Positions 314 to 43,072 of a stretch of 64,000 nt of DNA are shown piece after piece. The DNA is from a virus. The stretch lies in IMG/VR virus record IMGVR_UViG_3300045988_174698. The stretch is one strand, 5' to 3'. A model generated the notes under the pieces. The model was not told the DNA's origin. It was given only the letters and a program-made list of their open reading frames with translations, and searched no databases. The stretch's first letter is position 1; each line of letters starts with the position of its first letter. The translations under genes were made by a program, and so were the position numbers.

Positions 314-395
314 TTTAAAAACTAAATTTATTTTTATTTCTGATATCTTTTACTTCTGTATCTTTTACAGTTGCATCTTTTATTTCTTTTTCTCT

Positions 396-1271
396 TCATG
401 AAAGATAATCTTCATAATTTATTTCATCAGATTTAGGTAAAGGATAGAACATACCAATACTACCTTTGAAAGCAGACATGATAATTCTATTAGAAATACC
501 ATATCTATTTTTAAGAATAATAATAGATCTACAAATATCTTGTAAACCATATCCTTCGTTATCATCCATTATTTTATATCCTCTATAACTTTTTAGTTGG
601 GTTTTAAATGGACTAAATAATGCAATACAAATATCAGCAGCTTGTAATGGTTCACCTGACTGTTGAATTTCATCCGCAGTAGGCTCTTCCATACCAGCTT
701 TTCTCCTATCCATAGTTGTACTATTTCTATTTTCTTGCATTATAATATCAAAACTAGTCTGACATAGTTCTCTAAATCTGACACAATAAGTTGATATAAG
801 ATCCATTTCTTCTTTTTTAGTTCTCCCTTTTTGAGGATTTACTAAAAGTAAATGATCAATAACAACATTAACTATTTGATTAGGATTATTTGGGGTATAT
901 ATAGTTCTTTTTCCATCAGGACTTTTTTGAAAGGTTCCTAAACTTTTGTGGAGTTCCATCATTTCTGCATAAAAAGAATCTGCAGAGAGCTGTTTATCAT
1001 ATATAATAAACTTATGACTTATAGATTCTAATCACTCACGAGCTTCAATTACATACTTATGTATATCATCTGGTAACTTATTAGTAAATGACATTAATTG
1101 CATATATGTAACTTCAATACCATAAGTTTCATATAAATATAAGCTTAATAATTTCGCCAACAATGTATTAGCACTTAGTTCAAGAGAAAAATAAACTATA
1201 ATTATATCTTTATCTGGATAATCTTTTAAAATACGATATATATCTGTATATATAACAAAAGAGCTTTTCAA
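396..1271 (-). CDS. DnaB-family replicative helicase, C-terminal part (second segment of a split gene)
   Basis: ORFs 396..962 and 1032..1271 join in-frame through one TGA (..EAREW LESIS..). DnaB motifs present: IIIVYFSLELS (H1a), SGEPLQAADICIALF (H4, like SGxIEQDADxV) and ILKNRYG. The track's start is a TTG; the Walker A lies in the separate ORF at 2663..2860. Confidence 0.6.
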
Positions 1272-1708
1272 TTTGTTATCTTACTTGCTTTTTATCAAGT
1301 AATTCTTATAGTTTCCTATAAGTTCAGCATATATTTTCATCTCTTTGAGATGTCGGATACTCTTGGGAAAATTATATTCTGTATAACAGGTTCATTTCCT
1401 ATGCGTTACAATATAAAATAACTGTTAAATTACTTTATTATCTCGGGGTTAACATGCTTATATACAAAATTTGGATAATTATTCTGTACATATAGTTTAG
1501 CCTTCTCCGATATTACCCGATCATTATCTCTAAAATCACTTTTAGAGACGGCAAAATTATGATTTTTAAAACACAAATATCTATAATATTTCCTATTTAA
1601 ATAAATTGTAGAATTTTCATAAATTCACTGTAAAAATTTAATACTATTATTTATATTACTTTTTATATCAAATATTAGATCACTTGTTTTATTTGCAACA
1701 TATCATGT

Positions 1709-2122
1709 TCATGAAGTATTTGAATATACTTCTATATTTTGTAAAATATTTTTAGTTCCAACAATACAACATCTTGGTTTAAAAATATTTTTACTACCTC
1801 CATAAGATAAACATCCATCACCATCAAAATATCCTCTAATAAAATGTCTTATTAAATCTTTAGATTTAAAAATATTTTCATCAGGAAATTTTAAGACATA
1901 ACTTTTATTTGGAACACATCCTTTTTCTATTAGAGCATCTTTAATATGTTTACAAGAAATAGCAAATCTACATCGTTGCAATTTATTATCAGTTCTTGGT
2001 AATCTGAAAATATTTAAGGCACTATATAATTTTTCTAGATGTTCAATATCATCAATATGTAAATCACATGAGATATGGTAAGAATTTGTAGAAACATTAC
2101 CATCAGCATATAAAAATCCCAA
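1709..2122 (-). CDS. LAGLIDADG homing endonuclease (double-motif)
   Basis: Two LAGLIDADG-type motifs, GFLYADGNV and GYFDGDGCLS, with the spacing of a single-chain LAGLIDADG enzyme. The apparent start is TTG. The gene sits between the two DnaB helicase segments. Confidence 0.75.
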   Translation of the reverse strand: MGFLYADGNVSTNSYHISCDLHIDDIEHLEKLYSALNIFRLPRTDNKLQRCRFAISCKHIKDALIEKGCVPNKSYVLKFPDENIFKSKDLIRHFIRGYFDGDGCLSYGGSKNIFKPRCCIVGTKNILQNIEVYSNTS

Positions 2123-2195
2123 TCAATATGCTTTTGTTTCTGTGTCTATTACATCAAAAAATGATTCATTTACTGTTTTACGATTTAGGTTGAAA

Positions 2196-2621
2196 TTATG
2201 TTTTTTTTAGAAACTTTGAAATAACACAACCTTGAGTATTATATAATTTACCTATTTCTTTCAGAGACATACCGTTATTAAAACAATCAATCATATTTTT
2301 TAAATCATTTAATTTAAACGTATATGATATCCTATTACTTTTATGTGATAAATAAATTCCGCATCGTTTAAATAAATTACCTAATGCAGCAGATGTACAA
2401 TTGCACAATTTAGAAACAGATTTAAGTGATATTTCAGGATTTTCATGAAATTTACATAAGGCTTCTTTAACTTTTACATCATTTACTTTATGTTTTCTAA
2501 CATTCTTAAAATAAAAATCTAAAAGAATTAAATCTACAGCTTGTTTTGAAATATTTAATTTGTTGGATATTTCAAATGAATTTAAATTTTGTTTTCTTAG
2601 TTCTATTATTTTGTTTATCAT
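2196..2621 (-). CDS. HTH DNA-binding protein (NUMOD/sigma-r4-like), probably the DNA-binding module of the endonuclease cassette
   Basis: Two helix-turn-helix-like segments (ISNKLNISKQAVDLIL; SLKEIGKLYNTQGCVISKFLKK). Offset by +1 from the LAGLIDADG ORF, across an A8/T8 run at 2201-2210. Confidence 0.4.
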   Translation of the reverse strand: MINKIIELRKQNLNSFEISNKLNISKQAVDLILLDFYFKNVRKHKVNDVKVKEALCKFHENPEISLKSVSKLCNCTSAALGNLFKRCGIYLSHKSNRISYTFKLNDLKNMIDCFNNGMSLKEIGKLYNTQGCVISKFLKKT

Positions 2622-2662
2622 AGTAAAAATTATTTTAATTTTTACTACAAAAATAACGCAAT

Positions 2663-2860
2663 TTATTTATATTTACAAATATCTGCGTTGGAAATTATTA
2701 ATGTTTTACCAACACTACTTTTGCTGAATATTAACTTATATACACCCTTTTTAAATCCTCCAGTATAAAAATCCAATTTTAAAAGTCCTGTTTTAAGACC
2801 TATATTTTTACCTTCTCGCCCGTCTTCTATTTTAGAATATAATTCACCTACCAAACTCAT
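2663..2860 (-). CDS. DnaB-family helicase segment with Walker A (first segment of the split gene)
   Basis: GLKTGLLKLDFYTGGFKKGVYKLIFSKSSVGKTLI matches the DnaB linker-to-Walker-A region (GLxTGfxxLD...GKT). Ends at a TAA 13 residues after GKT. The FSLEM motif that should follow is 1.4 kb downstream in 396..1271. Confidence 0.55.
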   Translation of the reverse strand: MSLVGELYSKIEDGREGKNIGLKTGLLKLDFYTGGFKKGVYKLIFSKSSVGKTLIISNADICKYK

Positions 2861-3437
2861 TAAGCAGTTGTATAAACATCATAAGTACTGGTCTTACCTT
2901 GTATTCCCTTTATTTTCATTTCTTCAAATTCGTTTCACTTACAAGAAGCAACAAATTCAATAATAGGAATATGAATAAGATCGTTCATCTTAGCTCATTC
3001 TAATATTTCTAATACTTCTCGATGTTTACTTATACTATGTCCAATAGTTGATGCGTATCAAAAATAAAATTCTTGTAGGTCTCTAAATTTCTTAGAAATA
3101 TTCTTTAAACTTACAATCTTACCATTTAGATACAACGTTGTTGGATATGCATCCATTAACTCTTGTCCTAGTTCTCCAGTTAATTTGAAATACTGTTTAA
3201 TAAAGTTTTGATTAAACTCTATTTCATCAGGATCATAACAATTAGGATTATAATTTTTCTTAATAATACCTTTATCTTTGAGAGAATTAAATAAACTTTT
3301 TAATCGTTTATTACCACCGCCGTCATATCATTTTTTGAAATAAATACGATGCTCTTCGGGATTTCCATTCTCCGTTTGTGCAATAAAAGTTAAATATATT
3401 AACAAAACTTCATCAGCTGTTAACTGATATTTAGTCA
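2858..3437 (-). CDS. hypothetical protein (replication module), TGA-containing
   Basis: Hand translation MTKYQLTADEVLLIYLTF...KKWYDGGGNKRL... continues through several TGAs to a TAA that overlaps the ATG of 2663..2860 (TAATG). No motif recognised. Confidence 0.35.
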
Positions 3438-7100: not shown

Positions 7101-7333
7101 ATTAGTCTATGTCCCCCTTATAGGCATTCATAATAGATTTTTCCTTTCTAAGCCAAGAGCCCTCAGTTTCTGCTATATCTAGAACAGTACGGCTAATAGA
7201 TTCTTCTTCTCAATTTTGTTATCGTATAGCTTTTTATCTATACTTCTTATACTTCATTTTGTATAAGCTCAGCATATATTTTCACCTTCAGCATTATCTG
7301 TTAAGGGTAAATCACTCGTGGGTTTATTTTATT

Positions 7334-8089
7334 CTAATCTGTTATTAATATTTTATAATTGTATATAGCGTTGTATACCTGTTTTGGAAGTATATTTTTA
7401 TATTTGTTAGCATATTCCTTTAAACAAGTTTCTTTCTCTTTCTTATATGCTCTAAATGCTTCTTCAATTGTAGAAAAAGTTCCTATATGTTTTTTCTTAT
7501 TCATATAATTAATTTGAGCAATTATTTTATTGTTTTTGATTCTGACTCCTATTGGAGTATTACCTCTACATTGAAATCTTCAAGTAATAGCAGTATTAAT
7601 TTCCTTTGGGATAAAACAACAATAATTTGGAGAATAAATTTTATTCCCCTTTACCAAGAAATCTTTATCTATAACAAATGATTCGTTATAACAATTATTA
7701 TAATATCAATCCGCAAAATTCTGAAAATTTAATCATTCTTTACAAACAGTAACTCCATTTCCTCCATAGTTATTATATTCAGAAACTTTTGGACAATAAC
7801 ATCTTCCAATCATTTCTTTCCAAATTTTATAACATCGAGTTTGTTTACCGTTTTTGTCCCTAGAACTATATTGACCTACTCCAAAATAACCTGTATTGTA
7901 TACAGACGGATAATAAGGATCTTTAACAGAGCCCTTTTTTAGATTACCTAGTTCAGCAGTAATAATAGTACCTGTTTGTAAAAATTTTATTATTACATTA
8001 TATGAATCAATATATTCTAGAATGATAAAATCTCCAGAACTATTTGAAGTCATAATTTTATTTTCATAAATTTGTTTGTTATTTGTCAT
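7334..8089 (-). CDS. HNH-family homing endonuclease with a C-terminal AP2 DNA-binding domain
   Basis: ORF 7733..8089 continues through two TGAs to a TAG at 7334-7336 (frame checked). VIDKDFLVKGNKIYSPNYCCFIPKEIN is HNH_3-like. IGVRIKNNKIIAQINYMNKKKHIGTFSTIEEAFRAYKK is an AP2-type fold typical of phage homing endonucleases. Confidence 0.6.
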
Positions 8090-8264
8090 ATATCATAATA
8101 TTTTAATTAAACATAGTACAAATATACAAATTCTTTTTCAGACTCACAAACAAATTAGGTTCAAAACCTATGCGTTACACTGACTTAATATATTACTATT
8201 AAGTTTAGCACGGTATTAGCATCTCAGCCTTCACCGTTTTTGATTTATTCTATTCTACTTATTT

Positions 8265-8753
8265 CTAAGCAGACAGGCAGAATTCTACCTGCTCGTTCAC
8301 TAACATTCCTGTCTCTTTATCATGCCCGTTCAACCAGTTGAAAGTAGCCCAATCACCCTCATTAGCTGCCTGATCAACAATTTCATTAATCATTTGAGTA
8401 GTTTCAATTTCAAGATCTACGGTAATCTTAAAAGGATCTACCATATCTTCTACTTTCTTATCAAACTGCTCAATAGTAGGATAAATATACTCTGCATCGT
8501 TTTCATTTAAATATTTACGAATCCAGGAATGATGTAAGTATTCTTCATCTGCTCTTTGTTTGTAATACTCTTCAAGAATAACAAATCCTCTAACACCAAA
8601 GTAATTTGCAAAATTCATATACGCATTATGATTTTGCAATTCATGCTTAAGCTGACGAAGAAGTAGTTTTTGAATTTCAGCACTTAAAGTGCATTCACGC
8701 CTACTAACATCCTTTTTTTCTACAGGATCATTTGCCTCATTTTTAATTATCAT
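8265..8753 (-). CDS. ferritin-like (non-haem ferritin/FtnA-type) protein
   Basis: QRADEEYLHHSWIRKYL and INEIVDQAANEGDWATFNWLNGHDKETGMLVNEQVEF align with FtnA ([48 protein letters not shown]). Length of 162 aa fits a ferritin monomer. Confidence 0.6.
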   Translation of the reverse strand: MIIKNEANDPVEKKDVSRRECTLSAEIQKLLLRQLKHELQNHNAYMNFANYFGVRGFVILEEYYKQRADEEYLHHSWIRKYLNENDAEYIYPTIEQFDKKVEDMVDPFKITVDLEIETTQMINEIVDQAANEGDWATFNWLNGHDKETGMLVNEQVEFCLSA

Positions 8754-12774: not shown

Positions 12775-13295
12775 AATCAACTTATTAGCACGAGCTCTCC
12801 GATTCGAACAGAGACCGTAGGGTTTGGAGCCCTACAATACGGTTTTGCTTACCACTATAGTTTTCACTACCAGTTTTACTGTTTGTAGTCTGGACTATAT
12901 CAGCTTGATATACAAGTGTGGCATTTAGTCTCTACACATTTATAGAGTAAAGTAGGATACATAGAGAAGTGTACGGCTTTAATTTTCGACCTACTAAGCA
13001 CTCCGCCTATTTTACACGGCATAAACAGCCTATGTTCTCTACTGTATTTTACTCTAATTTAGCTCGGTATTATCAGCTATCCATATTTCAGGACCTTAGA
13101 CTTTCTTAGAAAGCTGATTCGCATGATTTTTATCATCTTATTTCGCTTTTACCGAATTTGCCACAATTTTCACGCCAAGCGTGCTCCAATTCGAAGACCG
13201 CTGTGCTACCATTACACTAAGCTCGCATTTATTATCTTTAGTTATACAGCAAAGATAACAAAAATCTGTGAACAATCAAAAATTTAATTAACAAA
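12775..13295 (-). ncRNA. ORF-free 520-nt tract with higher GC; candidate structured RNA with a tRNA-like 3' module
   Basis: No ORF of 60 aa or more on either strand. GC is visibly above flanking DNA. Read on the minus strand, 12817-12835 is a perfect 6-bp stem with a 7-nt loop CUCCAAA (anticodon-like CCA), followed by a T-arm-like CTCTG-TTCGAAT-CGGAG at 12797-12813. No matching 5' acceptor or D-arm was found. Confidence 0.25.
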
Positions 13296-29824: not shown

Positions 29825-29842
29825 AAGTTAAAAAGATTTTTG

Positions 29843-29875
29843 TGTGGCTGATGAGAATTGAACTCATGTCCATTC
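29843..29875 (-). other. isolated tRNA 3'-end-like fragment (T-arm plus acceptor 3' strand)
   Basis: The minus strand reads ATGAG-TTCAATT-CTCAT followed by CAGCCAC. No upstream D-arm or anticodon arm, and the flank is AT-rich. Confidence 0.25.
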
Positions 29876-30580
29876 AACTATTAATAATAATTTTATTTAC
29901 ATGCTAGGTTATTTTATTCTCCTATTCCGAAAAATAACAAAACGTATCAGATAGTTTTTATCTTATCTCCTACAACTTATCTGAAATAACTCGGTTCTAT
30001 AATAGTAGTTAGTAATGATTAACTTACATCATCTGCATTAATCTATACAGAAAATCTTTGTCTATTATTTCTCCAGACTTGGATAGCTTAAGCTGCAAAA
30101 GCTACTTGAGCACGCATAGGAGTTGCAAGAGGCATAACCTTGTTAGCCATCTTACGTACAGTGTTCTTAGCGTTTATTTTTTGGTCCAGTTGTTAAAGAA
30201 GTTATACCAGCTCCTGCATGAATTGTTATCAACTATCTTGAATGTCAAAAACCTGGCAGGCCCAAAGACAGGGCAGTTTATACTTATACCCTAGAAGTGG
30301 TCCATAATAGCTAAAGTGTTTAATGCTCTAATTATATAGCAGCGACTAGTATACTGTTATACTTTTCTTGTAACTTCAAGAACTATTACTAAAACTTCAA
30401 TGTGAAGTTCCTAAAAGCCACTTGAGTATTTTTTGGGTTCACTCAAGAATACCGTGTTTTATTGTCGGGATCAAACAACCAAACTACCACCTTTCTATAT
30501 ACAAAGGCAAACTCATACTATCTGGCGTAACCCGTTACTATTATTTATATACCGCTAAGTAACCTAATGCGGTTTACTTT

Positions 30581-42660: not shown

Positions 42661-42789
42661 TCTAATTGACAGGATTCGAACCTGCAGATGTTTTGATTAA
42701 CACCACATATTGTTTCAATACAGCCAAATTAGTTTTCATTTGACGAAGGGATATTAGTCCCTAGCGTATACCAATTCCGCCACAATTAA
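42661..42789 (-). ncRNA. atypical 129-nt tRNA-like RNA
   Basis: The ends pair as an acceptor stem (TTAATTG / CAATTAG, six Watson-Crick pairs plus one G-U). 3' T-arm GCAGG-TTCGAAT-CCTGT. 5' D-arm-like GCG...CGC. Anticodon-like hairpin AGGGA-CTAATA-TCCCT (6-nt loop, or 8-nt if the closing pair opens). These flank a roughly 60-nt insertion before the T-arm. Confidence 0.3.
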
Positions 42790-42925
42790 ACAAACTTATC
42801 TTTAACTTTAAAATGAAGGAGTGGGTGACTGTCACTCTAACAGTTACTAATACTAGTATAATGGCCTAGCAGCTCAGTGCCACAGTCTTCCGACACATTA
42901 GTAATGTATTTTTACTTCATCTTGC

Positions 42926-43028
42926 AGGTGTAACGGGATTCGAACCAGACATACGATTCCCTCAAGAGTTCTCTCTTAGCGTATCTCCGAAGTTGCCACC
43001 TCGGTGTTTTACCATTAAACTATACACC
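42926..43028 (-). ncRNA. atypical 103-nt tRNA-like element
   Basis: Acceptor GGTGTAT / TTACACC (6 bp). D-arm GTTT-AATGGTA-AAAC. Anticodon-like stem CCGAG/TTCGG with an 8-nt loop GTGGCAAC. A roughly 40-nt hairpin insertion (ATACG...AAGAG-AGAA-CTCTT...CGTAT) sits before a weak TTCGAAT T-arm. Confidence 0.25.
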
Positions 43029-43072
43029 TAAAACAAGTTGCAAATATAGCACTTAATTATTGAATATGCAAA

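Follow-up and report, generated by a model that had tools for sequence, protein, structure and literature searches.

In a 64,000-nt stretch of viral DNA (IMG/VR virus record IMGVR_UViG_3300045988_174698), hereafter the window, the gene for a crAss-type DnaB-like helicase is interrupted within the coding sequence of its Walker A motif, or P-loop. We interpret the interrupting segment, which runs from 2707 to 1269 on the minus strand together with all other features of the helicase locus (Table 1), as very probably a mobile group I intron. This interpretation is carried by observed features, namely the boundaries of the segment, the reading frame that is restored when they are joined, an RNA fold with covariation, the homology of the open reading frame (ORF) within it and a frameshift in that ORF. 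A preliminary description of the same DNA had proposed a group I intron with a LAGLIDADG endonuclease, and that proposal is supported by the comparative evidence presented here, which consists of the junctions, a copy without an ORF, the fold and the splice-site signatures.

Predicted splice junctions in the helicase gene

Read with the bacterial code, the locus shows a 65-codon ORF (2860..2663) that carries GLKTGLLKLDF...SSVGKT and ends in ...SSVGKTLIISNADICKYK-TAA, then a 141-codon helix-turn-helix (HTH)-like ORF (2621..2196), then pieces with LAGLIDADG motifs, and an ORF opening at TTG 1271 that includes ...DIIIVYFSLELS. We confirm two features that the preliminary description saw in this arrangement: the Walker A ORF stops at a TAA 13 codons past 'GKT', and an FSLEM-type motif, DYPDKDIIIVYFSLELS, follows it on that strand after about 1.4 kb (around 1215). 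The extent originally given to the insertion, 1216-2665, has to be replaced by 2707..1269, as judged from alignment of the junctions to two homologs of the helicase, the uninterrupted L005 (MT836666.1; 37.5% identity) and the interrupted L006 (MT835492.1, from a gut phage). These boundaries place the interruption exactly between the Gly and Lys codons of the P-loop. They also show that the 'GKT' first taken for the helicase P-loop is a decoy at the DNA level, its K and T being read from AAA ACA, with which the intron begins; the true last codon of exon 1 is GGT (2710-2708), and the Lys-Ser of the P-loop comes from AAA AGC at the start of exon 2 (1268-1263). The intron itself runs AAAACAUU...GAUAACAAAUUG. 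A first guess at the splice sites, giving GKT-F-SFV (5' site after ACA TT, 3' site after AAAAG), was dropped, since L006, L005 and a family-wide tail, GAUAACA-N-G^ (^ marks a splice junction here and below), place the 3' splice site at 1269.

Joining the exons in silico, a check that the preliminary description had itself suggested, gives a single 368-codon ORF (...FSKSSVG^KSSFVIYTDIYRIL...; predicted ligated-exon junction AGTAGTGTTGGT^AAAAGCTCTTTTGTT) that aligns to L005 without gaps. L005 reads ...LILSNSGAGKT, then SFALYAYVYRPL...FKVLYFSLEM, and the window spliced at 2708/1268 reads ...SKSSVGKS, then SFVIYTDIYRIL...YFSLEL, so that a Walker A GK(S/T) followed by an FSLEM-type motif is restored. 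Pfam DnaB_C scores 54.6 bits on the joined protein (cut-off 27), as against 20.2 and 28.3 bits on the separate pieces. By Pfam the spliced helicase lacks a DnaB N-terminal domain, and the joined protein is closest to annotated replicative helicases of crAss-like phages. Exon 2 holds one in-frame TGA (1034-1032), which is Trp under the genetic code discussed below.

The same helicase site is found in four allelic states, which together display the whole life cycle of a homing endonuclease. L005 has an empty site (GGTGCAGGT^AAGACTTCG); L128, a more distant relative of the same helicase (junction SSVG^KTSLVIY), has the same intron at the same site with an intact 387-aa HTH-LAGLIDADG ORF; the window and L127, an independent assembly 97-98% identical to it and with the same intron boundaries, carry a frameshifted endonuclease gene; and L006 has a 381-nt insertion with no intact ORF. 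In L006, exon 1 ends ...GGT ATT GGT^, the intron ends ...AACUG^ and exon 2 begins AAA TCA AGT, which together give GIG^KSSAALYSYVY.

A conserved RNA core

The ~290 nt at the 3' end of the intron (1556-1269) form the putative ribozyme core, for which we aligned 35 sequences with MAFFT and propose a structure of 13 helices and 69 pairs. Its elements follow one another in the order internal guide sequence (IGS)-P2-P3-J3/4 (A-rich)-P4-J4/5-P5-J5/4-P4'-P6-J6/7-P7-P7.1/7.1a-P3'-P8-J8/7-P7'-P9-P9.1-tail GAUAACA-N4-5-G, with a GNRA-type loop on P9 and a P9.1 loop, AUAAAAAG, that is invariant in the family. In the proposed structure 91.8% of cells are paired, compared with 64.6% when the 3' partners are shuffled and 34-43% when they are slid by 1-3 columns. 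Both-sided, compensatory changes occur in 62 of the 69 pairs, and the covariation score is 0.681 vs 0.09-0.16 in the slid controls. When the window's 295 nt are folded alone, the minimum free energy structure (-61.9 kcal/mol, z = -4.6) recovers P2, P3, P5, P6, P8, P9 and P9.1.

The key to the fold was provided by compact members without an ORF, such as the third intron in the terminase large-subunit (TerL) gene of L047 (...FGAKD^ESSADLIQGITLCALYID^EVALIPQ...). The six bases that directly precede an A-rich linker and the first conserved hairpin are always complementary, in reverse order, to the six that come after CCAAGAGU; the pair is UCGGGU/AUCCGA in the window, and other examples are CAGACC/GGUCUG, CAAACC/GGUUUG, UAGUCC/GGACUA, UUCCGC/GCGGAA and UUGCGU/ACGCAA. 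Because this six-base helix and the helix GCAUA/UAUGC cross, we assign the former as P3 and the latter as P7 of a group I pseudoknot. P3, 91.9% paired, covaries at 6/6 of its pairs. P7 is 100% paired, with a switch between A-U and G-C in 12/35 sequences; its first two pairs (G-C, C-G) are invariant in 35/35, and the AAC of J6/7 is canonical-like. Two junction segments resemble those of a canonical group I intron that Rfam aligns in another locus, L027: J8/7 with P7', GAAAAUAUAUGC, is close to canonical GAAGAUAUAGUC, and J6/7 with P7, GUAACGCAUA, to canonical UUCAACGACUA. The P7.1 and P7.1a helices (99.4% and 82% paired) lie between the 5' strand of P7 and the 3' strand of P3, and we read such an extra P7-P3' hairpin as a hallmark of the IA subgroup type, the position of the insert being confirmed by the Rfam alignment of the L027 intron and by PMC3428280.

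An initial fold, with GCAUA/UAUGC as P3, GGAAA/UUUCC as P4 and GUAUC/GAUAAC as P7, was dropped: it had no J3/4, P6 or J8/7 and one hairpin too many, and the UCGGGU/AUCCGA pairing was then found.

Guide sequence and splice-site signatures

Across the family, the guide sequence is a conserved UUUGCCGUC located 5' of P2. In the window, the GCCG of the IGS pairs with the end of exon 1, UGGU, leaving a U2708·G1552 wobble at the cleavage site, and its UUUU (1556-1553) pairs both with the intron start AAAA, as an extension of P1, and with the exon 2 start AAAA, as P10. The P1 pairing with a U·G at the 5' splice site and the terminal G that the preliminary description expected of a group I intron were therefore both found on inspection. 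As the window IGS is 1.15 kb downstream of the 5' splice site and 3' of the ORFs, the latter occupy the P1 loop.

These signatures are shared. In every family intron with mapped junctions, a U closes the exon and faces a G of the IGS, the final intron base is G and a P10 can be formed; the rules were mapped by inspection in the window intron, a second intron in the window, L006, two introns of L047, L004 and L128. Guide and exon covary, as GCCG/UGGU, GCCAG/UUGGU, GCCUG/CAGGU and GUCG/UGAU. The second window intron has CAGGU^AG as P1 partner of the guide CU-GCCUG, and its exon 2 starts with AGAA, which pairs with UUCU as P10. L006 has UUGGU^ with the guide GCCAG, the two L047 introns (U)GAU^ with GUCG, L004 GGU^AAA with UUUGCC, and L128 UGGU^AAAG with CUUUGCCG. 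Two other candidates for the guide sequence were rejected: CCAAC (2692-2688) leaves U-1 facing U, and 'ACCAAU' in L006 is the 5' strand of P3.

The intron endonuclease

The preliminary description had placed HTH and double-motif LAGLIDADG coding sequence between the helicase parts, which is correct, and had treated it as two separate ORFs, which does not hold: the two belong to one frameshifted endonuclease gene of ~396 aa in the P1 loop. The fused HTH and LAGLIDADG query has more than 5000 homologs, many of them 387-419 aa long and covering 95-100% of the query in one chain, and their alignment passes unbroken through ...VISKFLKK-H/K-xF...NE.FFD.IDTE.KAYWLGFLYADG. Compared with the full-length homologs, the window lacks an intact endonuclease reading frame, with a +1 frameshift at a run of eight A (A8); L127 has A6 at the same spot and is likewise out of frame. 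The window endonuclease is probably inactive or made only at a low level, as judged from this frameshift, and the A6 and A8 alleles may represent decay, homopolymer error, or low-level expression that depends on slippage. Pfam matches are to LAGLIDADG_3 (E = 5e-6) and LAGLIDADG_1 (E = 7.5e-4), the homologs carry PF14528, and a PDB sequence search with the endonuclease returned only 7qst_A, weakly (E = 0.004).

The last ~42 codons of the LAGLIDADG part overlap the IGS, P2, P3, P4 and P5, and an invariant C-terminal sequence, NFAVSKSDF.DNDRAISEKAK, is encoded by IGS-P2-P3-P4-P5. Because of this overlap, the C-terminal stretch of the endonuclease is under dual constraint. At the other end of the gene there is an 11-bp hairpin (2647-2621, minus strand; UAGUAAAAAUU...AAUUUUUACUA) whose 3' arm is closed by the endonuclease ATG at 2621, and which may sequester the start codon. 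A separate observation concerns protein P0004, a mosaic in which the C-terminal half is near-identical to the LAGLIDADG part of the window and the N-terminal HTH region is unrelated; this suggests domain shuffling among intron endonucleases.

Distribution of the family and its insertion sites

A blastn comparison of the region with 50,697 phage records gave matches (69-79% identity) to the non-coding 3' block alone (~1265-1455); they came from Staphylococcus 6ec-like, Clostridioides phiCD211-like, Bacillus, Arcanobacterium, Oenococcus and crAss-like phages. The RNA core is present in at least 72 GenBank phage records, and retrieval by a conserved pattern yields at least 120 IMG/VR contigs that have it; by profile search the retrieved loci contain 143 copies, with two or three in several of them. 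In all cases examined, the 3' block is flanked on one side by an endonuclease ORF and on the other by the second half of a split gene. Among the genes split by the family are those for terminase large subunit, tape measure protein and a RecD-like helicase, the last case including an annotated 'mobile intron protein'.

Other family members also sit in P-loops. In the RecD-like helicase of Bacillus phage PJN02 a member occupies the equivalent P-loop spot (GGGGMG^KSWLQ, exon GGU^AAA), and in several others exon 1 ends GGU and exon 2 starts with AAA and a Ser or Thr codon. These sites suggest a lineage specialized on P-loop codons. L006 has a second copy (1308-1629) beside or within an upstream SNF2-like helicase gene, with exon 2 starting AAA TCC (Lys-Ser), and this copy may lie in another Walker A motif; the equivalent SNF2-like gene of the window (about 4600-3514) has no family copy.

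The GenBank records behind L001-L004 present the split genes as two coding sequences (terminase large subunit twice, RecD-like helicase twice, and tail/tape measure), with the ribozyme region annotated 'none' or as a terminator, which is likely to be systematic mis-annotation caused by undetected introns. Some loci are more crowded. In L027, a phiCD211-like tail/tape-measure region, a family copy (1677-1922) is followed by a canonical intron (1967-2217) and a weaker family copy (2441-2660), and the terminase large-subunit gene of L047 (~2017-412, minus strand) has three family introns in 1.6 kb, one of them without an ORF (~290 nt) and one with an HNH/AP2-like ORF in the P5 loop.

Table 1. Positions of the helicase exons, the putative intron with its RNA elements and endonuclease gene, and further features of the window.
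Feature	Position	Strand	Details
Exon 1, DnaB-like (crAss-type) replicative helicase	2708..2860	minus	ATG 2860 to ...AGT AGT GTT GGT; last base U2708; Pfam DnaB_C positions 1-38; boundary from alignment to uninterrupted L005 and to L006
Putative group I intron, 1439 nt	2707..1269	minus	begins AAAACAUUAAU, finishes GAUAACAAAUUG; omega G at 1269
Read-through of exon 1 frame into intron	2663..2707	minus	KTLIISNADICKYK, then TAA 2665-2663; origin of the apparent 'GKT'
Endonuclease, N-terminal HTH part, 141 codons	2196..2621	minus	ATG 2621
A8 run, site of frame break	2201..2208	minus	CTAAAAAAAACAT; A7 would be in frame
Endonuclease, LAGLIDADG part	1430..2206	minus	AYW(TGA)LGFLYADG ~2128-2099, IRGYFDGDG ~1834-1814; no start codon of its own
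IGS	1549..1556	minus	5'-UUUUGCCG-3'; by inspection, under the rule common to other family introns
P2 hairpin (helix 1)	1528..1547	minus	CUCUAAAA-GUGA-UUUUAGAG
P3, 5' strand (helix 2)	1515..1520	minus	UCGGGU; pairs with AUCCGA 1358-1353
P4-P5-P6 domain (helices 3-5)	1410..1510	minus	P4 UCGG/CCGA 1510-1507/1446-1443
P5 with window-specific extension	1502-~1453	minus
P6, variable hairpin	1442-1410	minus
J6/7 and P7, 5' strand (helix 6)	1400..1409	minus	GUAAC-GCAUA; P7 pairs with UAUGC 1331-1327
P7.1/P7.1a peripheral hairpin (helices 7, 8)	1366..1399	minus	GGAAA-UGAA-CCUGU..ACAG-AAUAUAA-UUUCC
P3, 3' strand	1358-1353	minus
P8	1352-1338	minus
J8/7	1337-1332	minus	AAAAUA
P7, 3' strand	1331-1327	minus	UAUGC
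P9	1322-1305	minus	CUUAUAG-GAAA-CUAUAAG
P9.1	1302-1281	minus	loop AUAAAAAG; helices 11-13 cover P9, P9.1 and tail
Tail	1280-1269	minus	GAUAACAAAUUG, ending in omega G
Exon 2 of helicase	315..1268	minus	AAA AGC TCT TTT (K S S F...); TAA stop 317-315
Putative second family intron, 1076 nt	7211..8286	minus	in ferritin-like gene, exons 8753-8287 and 7210-7102
AP2/HNH-like ORF, ~238 aa	8053-~7337	minus	in P7.1a loop of second intron
tmRNA gene	29842-30263	minus	Rfam 52.3 bits

Discussion

We propose that the helicase gene would be transcribed through the intron, and that the 3'-terminal ~290 nt (1556-1269) would fold into a subgroup-IA-like group I ribozyme in which the IGS UUUUGCCG and UGGU^AAAA form P1, the cleavage site being marked by a U·G wobble. 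Exogenous guanosine would then attack after U2708, the UUUU of the IGS would re-pair with the AAAA of exon 2 to give P10, the terminal G1269 would dock in P7, and the exons would be ligated, which would leave a single ORF of 368 codons in which the P-loop, SKSSVG^KS, is intact. The ribozyme would have been retained, though the endonuclease is frameshifted, because helicase function depends on it. If so, the replicative helicase of the window is one intact gene once spliced, rather than a set of fragments or a pseudogene.

Several points weigh against this reading. The search with the Rfam model Intron_gpI (RF00028), which the preliminary description had put forward as a check, failed to match the intron: there was no hit across the whole window at the gathering threshold, none at E<=10 on 900-3100, and none on relatives L001-L004 or on the ORF-less L006, L047, L063 and L058. 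As a positive control, the model finds the canonical IA-type intron of L027 (1967-2217, 103.7 bits), which sits 45 nt from a family copy in the same locus. Because the same search detects that intron, the negative result is specific to this intron family, and because the comparative structure is also clear, we regard it as a false negative. Group I membership accordingly leans on our own structural assignment from aligned sequences, and the subgroup IA assignment, by way of P7.1/7.1a, leans partly on general definitions of the subgroups. P1 is short, with four exon base pairs and four intron base pairs, and must span a loop of 1.15 kb; in addition, the end of exon 1, GUUGG (2713-2709), can pair locally with CCAAC (2692-2688) with no U·G, and this pairing could compete with the long-range P1. 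Finally, self-splicing, its dependence on guanosine, and the activity and target of the endonuclease are inferred, the splicing being predicted from DNA rather than read from RNA.

Of the competing explanations, the one that survives best, at what we judge to be a very low probability, is that the intron has decayed and no longer splices, in which case the helicase would be a pseudogene and its function would be supplied elsewhere. Such a history might be suspected from the frameshifted endonuclease gene, the 1.15 kb spanned by P1 and the competing pseudo-guide near the 5' splice site. But the window has intact core helices throughout, together with an intact IGS, U·G pair and terminal G, both exons are open and conserved, L127 (97-98% identity) has the same structure, and no second DnaB-like gene was seen within the window. 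It is also highly improbable, and a little more so, that the RNA belongs to a class outside group I, self-splicing or protein-assisted, which mimics the P3/P7 topology: from P1 through P9 every helix has its group I counterpart in the same order and nesting, the U·G that marks the 5' splice site, P10 and the final G are group I-like as well, J4/5 and J5/4 are A-rich, and J8/7-P7' is similar to the canonical S element. The attraction of a distinct class lies in the blindness of RF00028 to the whole family next to its success with the L027 intron, and in a classical P/Q/R/S consensus that is not present verbatim. Neither a dead intron nor a distinct ribozyme is favored.

The preliminary description had itself named an alternative, an endonuclease insertion with no intron that leaves two polypeptides. 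Here a free-standing endonuclease cassette would divide the gene with no splicing, and a Walker A fragment of 65 aa would assemble non-covalently with a remainder of ~318 aa, started at TTG 1271, as the products of split genes do in some T4-like phages; we give this the same minimal credence as a distinct ribozyme class. TTG 1271 does open an ORF that spans the C-terminal part, read-through of exon 1 does recreate a 'GKT' ahead of the stop, and the lack of an Rfam intron match is what such a cassette would give. The idea is contradicted by the 381-nt copy in L006, which has no endonuclease ORF and an identical position, and by the RNA structure, since the last ~290 nt of the insertion make up a structured RNA that is conserved, has the group I topology and covaries extensively. 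The boundaries moreover follow the U^...G^ and P1/P10 rules, with covariation; the join relative to L005 is seamless, whereas two polypeptides would break a helix right after the P-loop; and TTG 1271 has no ribosome-binding context. An intein is rejected by stops in all three frames across 2707-1269, an endonuclease in another frame and no Hint or intein match in Pfam, and a group II intron by the absence of a group II match in Rfam, of a domain V and of a reverse transcriptase domain in the ORFs. Given the stops in all frames and the missing Hint domain, removal of the insertion would have to happen at the RNA level.

As a mobile group I intron, the element is in part ordinary. That phage replication genes harbor group I introns with homing endonucleases is textbook knowledge (PMC3984707), and group I introns are abundant in gut phages (PMC12880540). 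Phage introns of subgroup IA with homing endonuclease genes are known from td, nrdB and nrdD of T4, the DNA polymerase genes of SPO1 and Pf-WMP3, and orf142 of Twort (PMC3984707, PMC3428280). Like these, the window intron interrupts an essential replication gene at a conserved motif and has a P3/P7 core, a P7-P3' hairpin, a U·G at the 5' site, a terminal G, a P10, an in-frame stop soon after the 5' splice site and an endonuclease ORF that partly overlaps the core. Unlike them, it is invisible to RF00028, has one compound P7.1/7.1a hairpin instead of P7.1 and P7.2, belongs to a family with a conserved P9.1, the invariant loop AUAAAAAG and the tail GAUAACA-N4-5-G, and carries its ORF in the P1 loop, upstream of the guide sequence. 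The usual endonucleases of phage introns are of the GIY-YIG, HNH, PD-(D/E)xK and EDxHD types (PMC3984707), and the window endonuclease differs from the types listed there in being LAGLIDADG.

Another known system is that of the gut 'Jug' jumbo phages, with Bacteroidota-type hosts, in which many group I introns and endonucleases split terL, nrdD and DNA polymerase genes; their introns average ~206 nt, were found with subgroup-specific covariance models, and were confirmed to splice by metatranscriptomes for about half of those tested (PMC12880540). The window resembles them in coming from a gut-type phage with probable group I introns, one of which splits an essential gene. There is also a likeness to DnaB inteins, in that both combine a LAGLIDADG-type endonuclease with an insertion at or close to the P-loop of a DnaB-family helicase, but the window differs from inteins in its stops in all frames, its endonuclease in another frame and its lack of a Hint domain. 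In T4-like phages, free-standing homing endonucleases split an essential gene into two flanking ORFs. The window differs from such split genes in having a structured ribozyme beside the ORF and an ORF-less copy at the same site in L006.

What is less ordinary is the combination of an RNA that RF00028 does not see, a LAGLIDADG endonuclease in a phage intron, an ORF in the P1 loop that overlaps IGS-P5, a target between the G and K codons of the P-loop, and a TGA-recoded genome. Introns of one kind interrupt different helicases precisely between the G and K codons of the P-loop, and this shows clearly that a mobile element can target a catalytic motif that does not vary. It is tempting to speculate, as a possibility that we hold only tentatively and consider rather unlikely in its entirety, that these introns constitute a large uncatalogued subgroup of phage group I introns, with an IA-like core, P7.1/7.1a, P9.1 and tail, and invisible to RF00028, which would include a G^K-homing lineage (in DnaB-, RecD- and SNF2-like genes) with a P1-loop endonuclease whose C-terminal codons make up IGS-P5 and whose expression may depend on slippage at the A-run (A6/A7/A8). 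In the searchable, incomplete literature we found no prior description of this family or of phage introns that target P-loops. The intron database of PMC11835236 was seeded from RF00028 hits, and if the speculation is true the family may be missing from databases built in this way. The family splits many phage genes in GenBank, mostly annotated as separate ORFs or 'none', and since the standard Rfam model misses all of its copies, many phage annotations would be mended by a covariance model built for this family.

Genetic code and further features of the window

TGA is a sense codon across the window, with 105 in-frame TGA vs 83 TGG in long ORFs bounded by TAA or TAG, and it occurs inside evidently coding sequence, as in AY-TGA-LGFLYADG and EARE-TGA-LESIS. 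The LAGLIDADG ORF and the C-terminal part of the helicase are broken up under the bacterial code, and translation table 4 fuses the pieces and lifts the ORF content of the window (ORFs >=100 aa) from 12,954 to 19,653 aa. Because of the fused fragments, the gain in ORF content and the TGA and TGG counts, we conclude that the window comes from a TGA-recoded phage, in which TGA is, by these codon data, apparently read as Trp-like. No tRNA with anticodon UCA came up in the window with either ARAGORN or Rfam. The host phage is gut-type.

The second family intron in the window, which underlies profile-search matches at 8242-8151 and 7338-7209, interrupts a ferritin-like gene. After splicing in silico, this gene matches Pfam Ferritin at 51.4 bits (...GMLVNEQ-V-EEESISRTV...), with a predicted ligated junction of GAGCAGGT to AGAAGAAGAATC. 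The P3 of this intron is UAAAUC/GAUUUA.

The window has 12-15 tRNA genes, clustered at 23642-43685, and these, together with the transfer-messenger RNA (tmRNA) gene, suggest a large phage genome. A tRNA-Ala at 12788-13226, with an intron of 344 nt, is a further proposal of ARAGORN that may be spurious. Two Rfam tRNA matches are over-long, one at 42925-43029 (105 nt) and one at 42661-42789 (129 nt), and the latter is called tRNA-Ile(aat) with a 41-nt intron by ARAGORN when introns are allowed.

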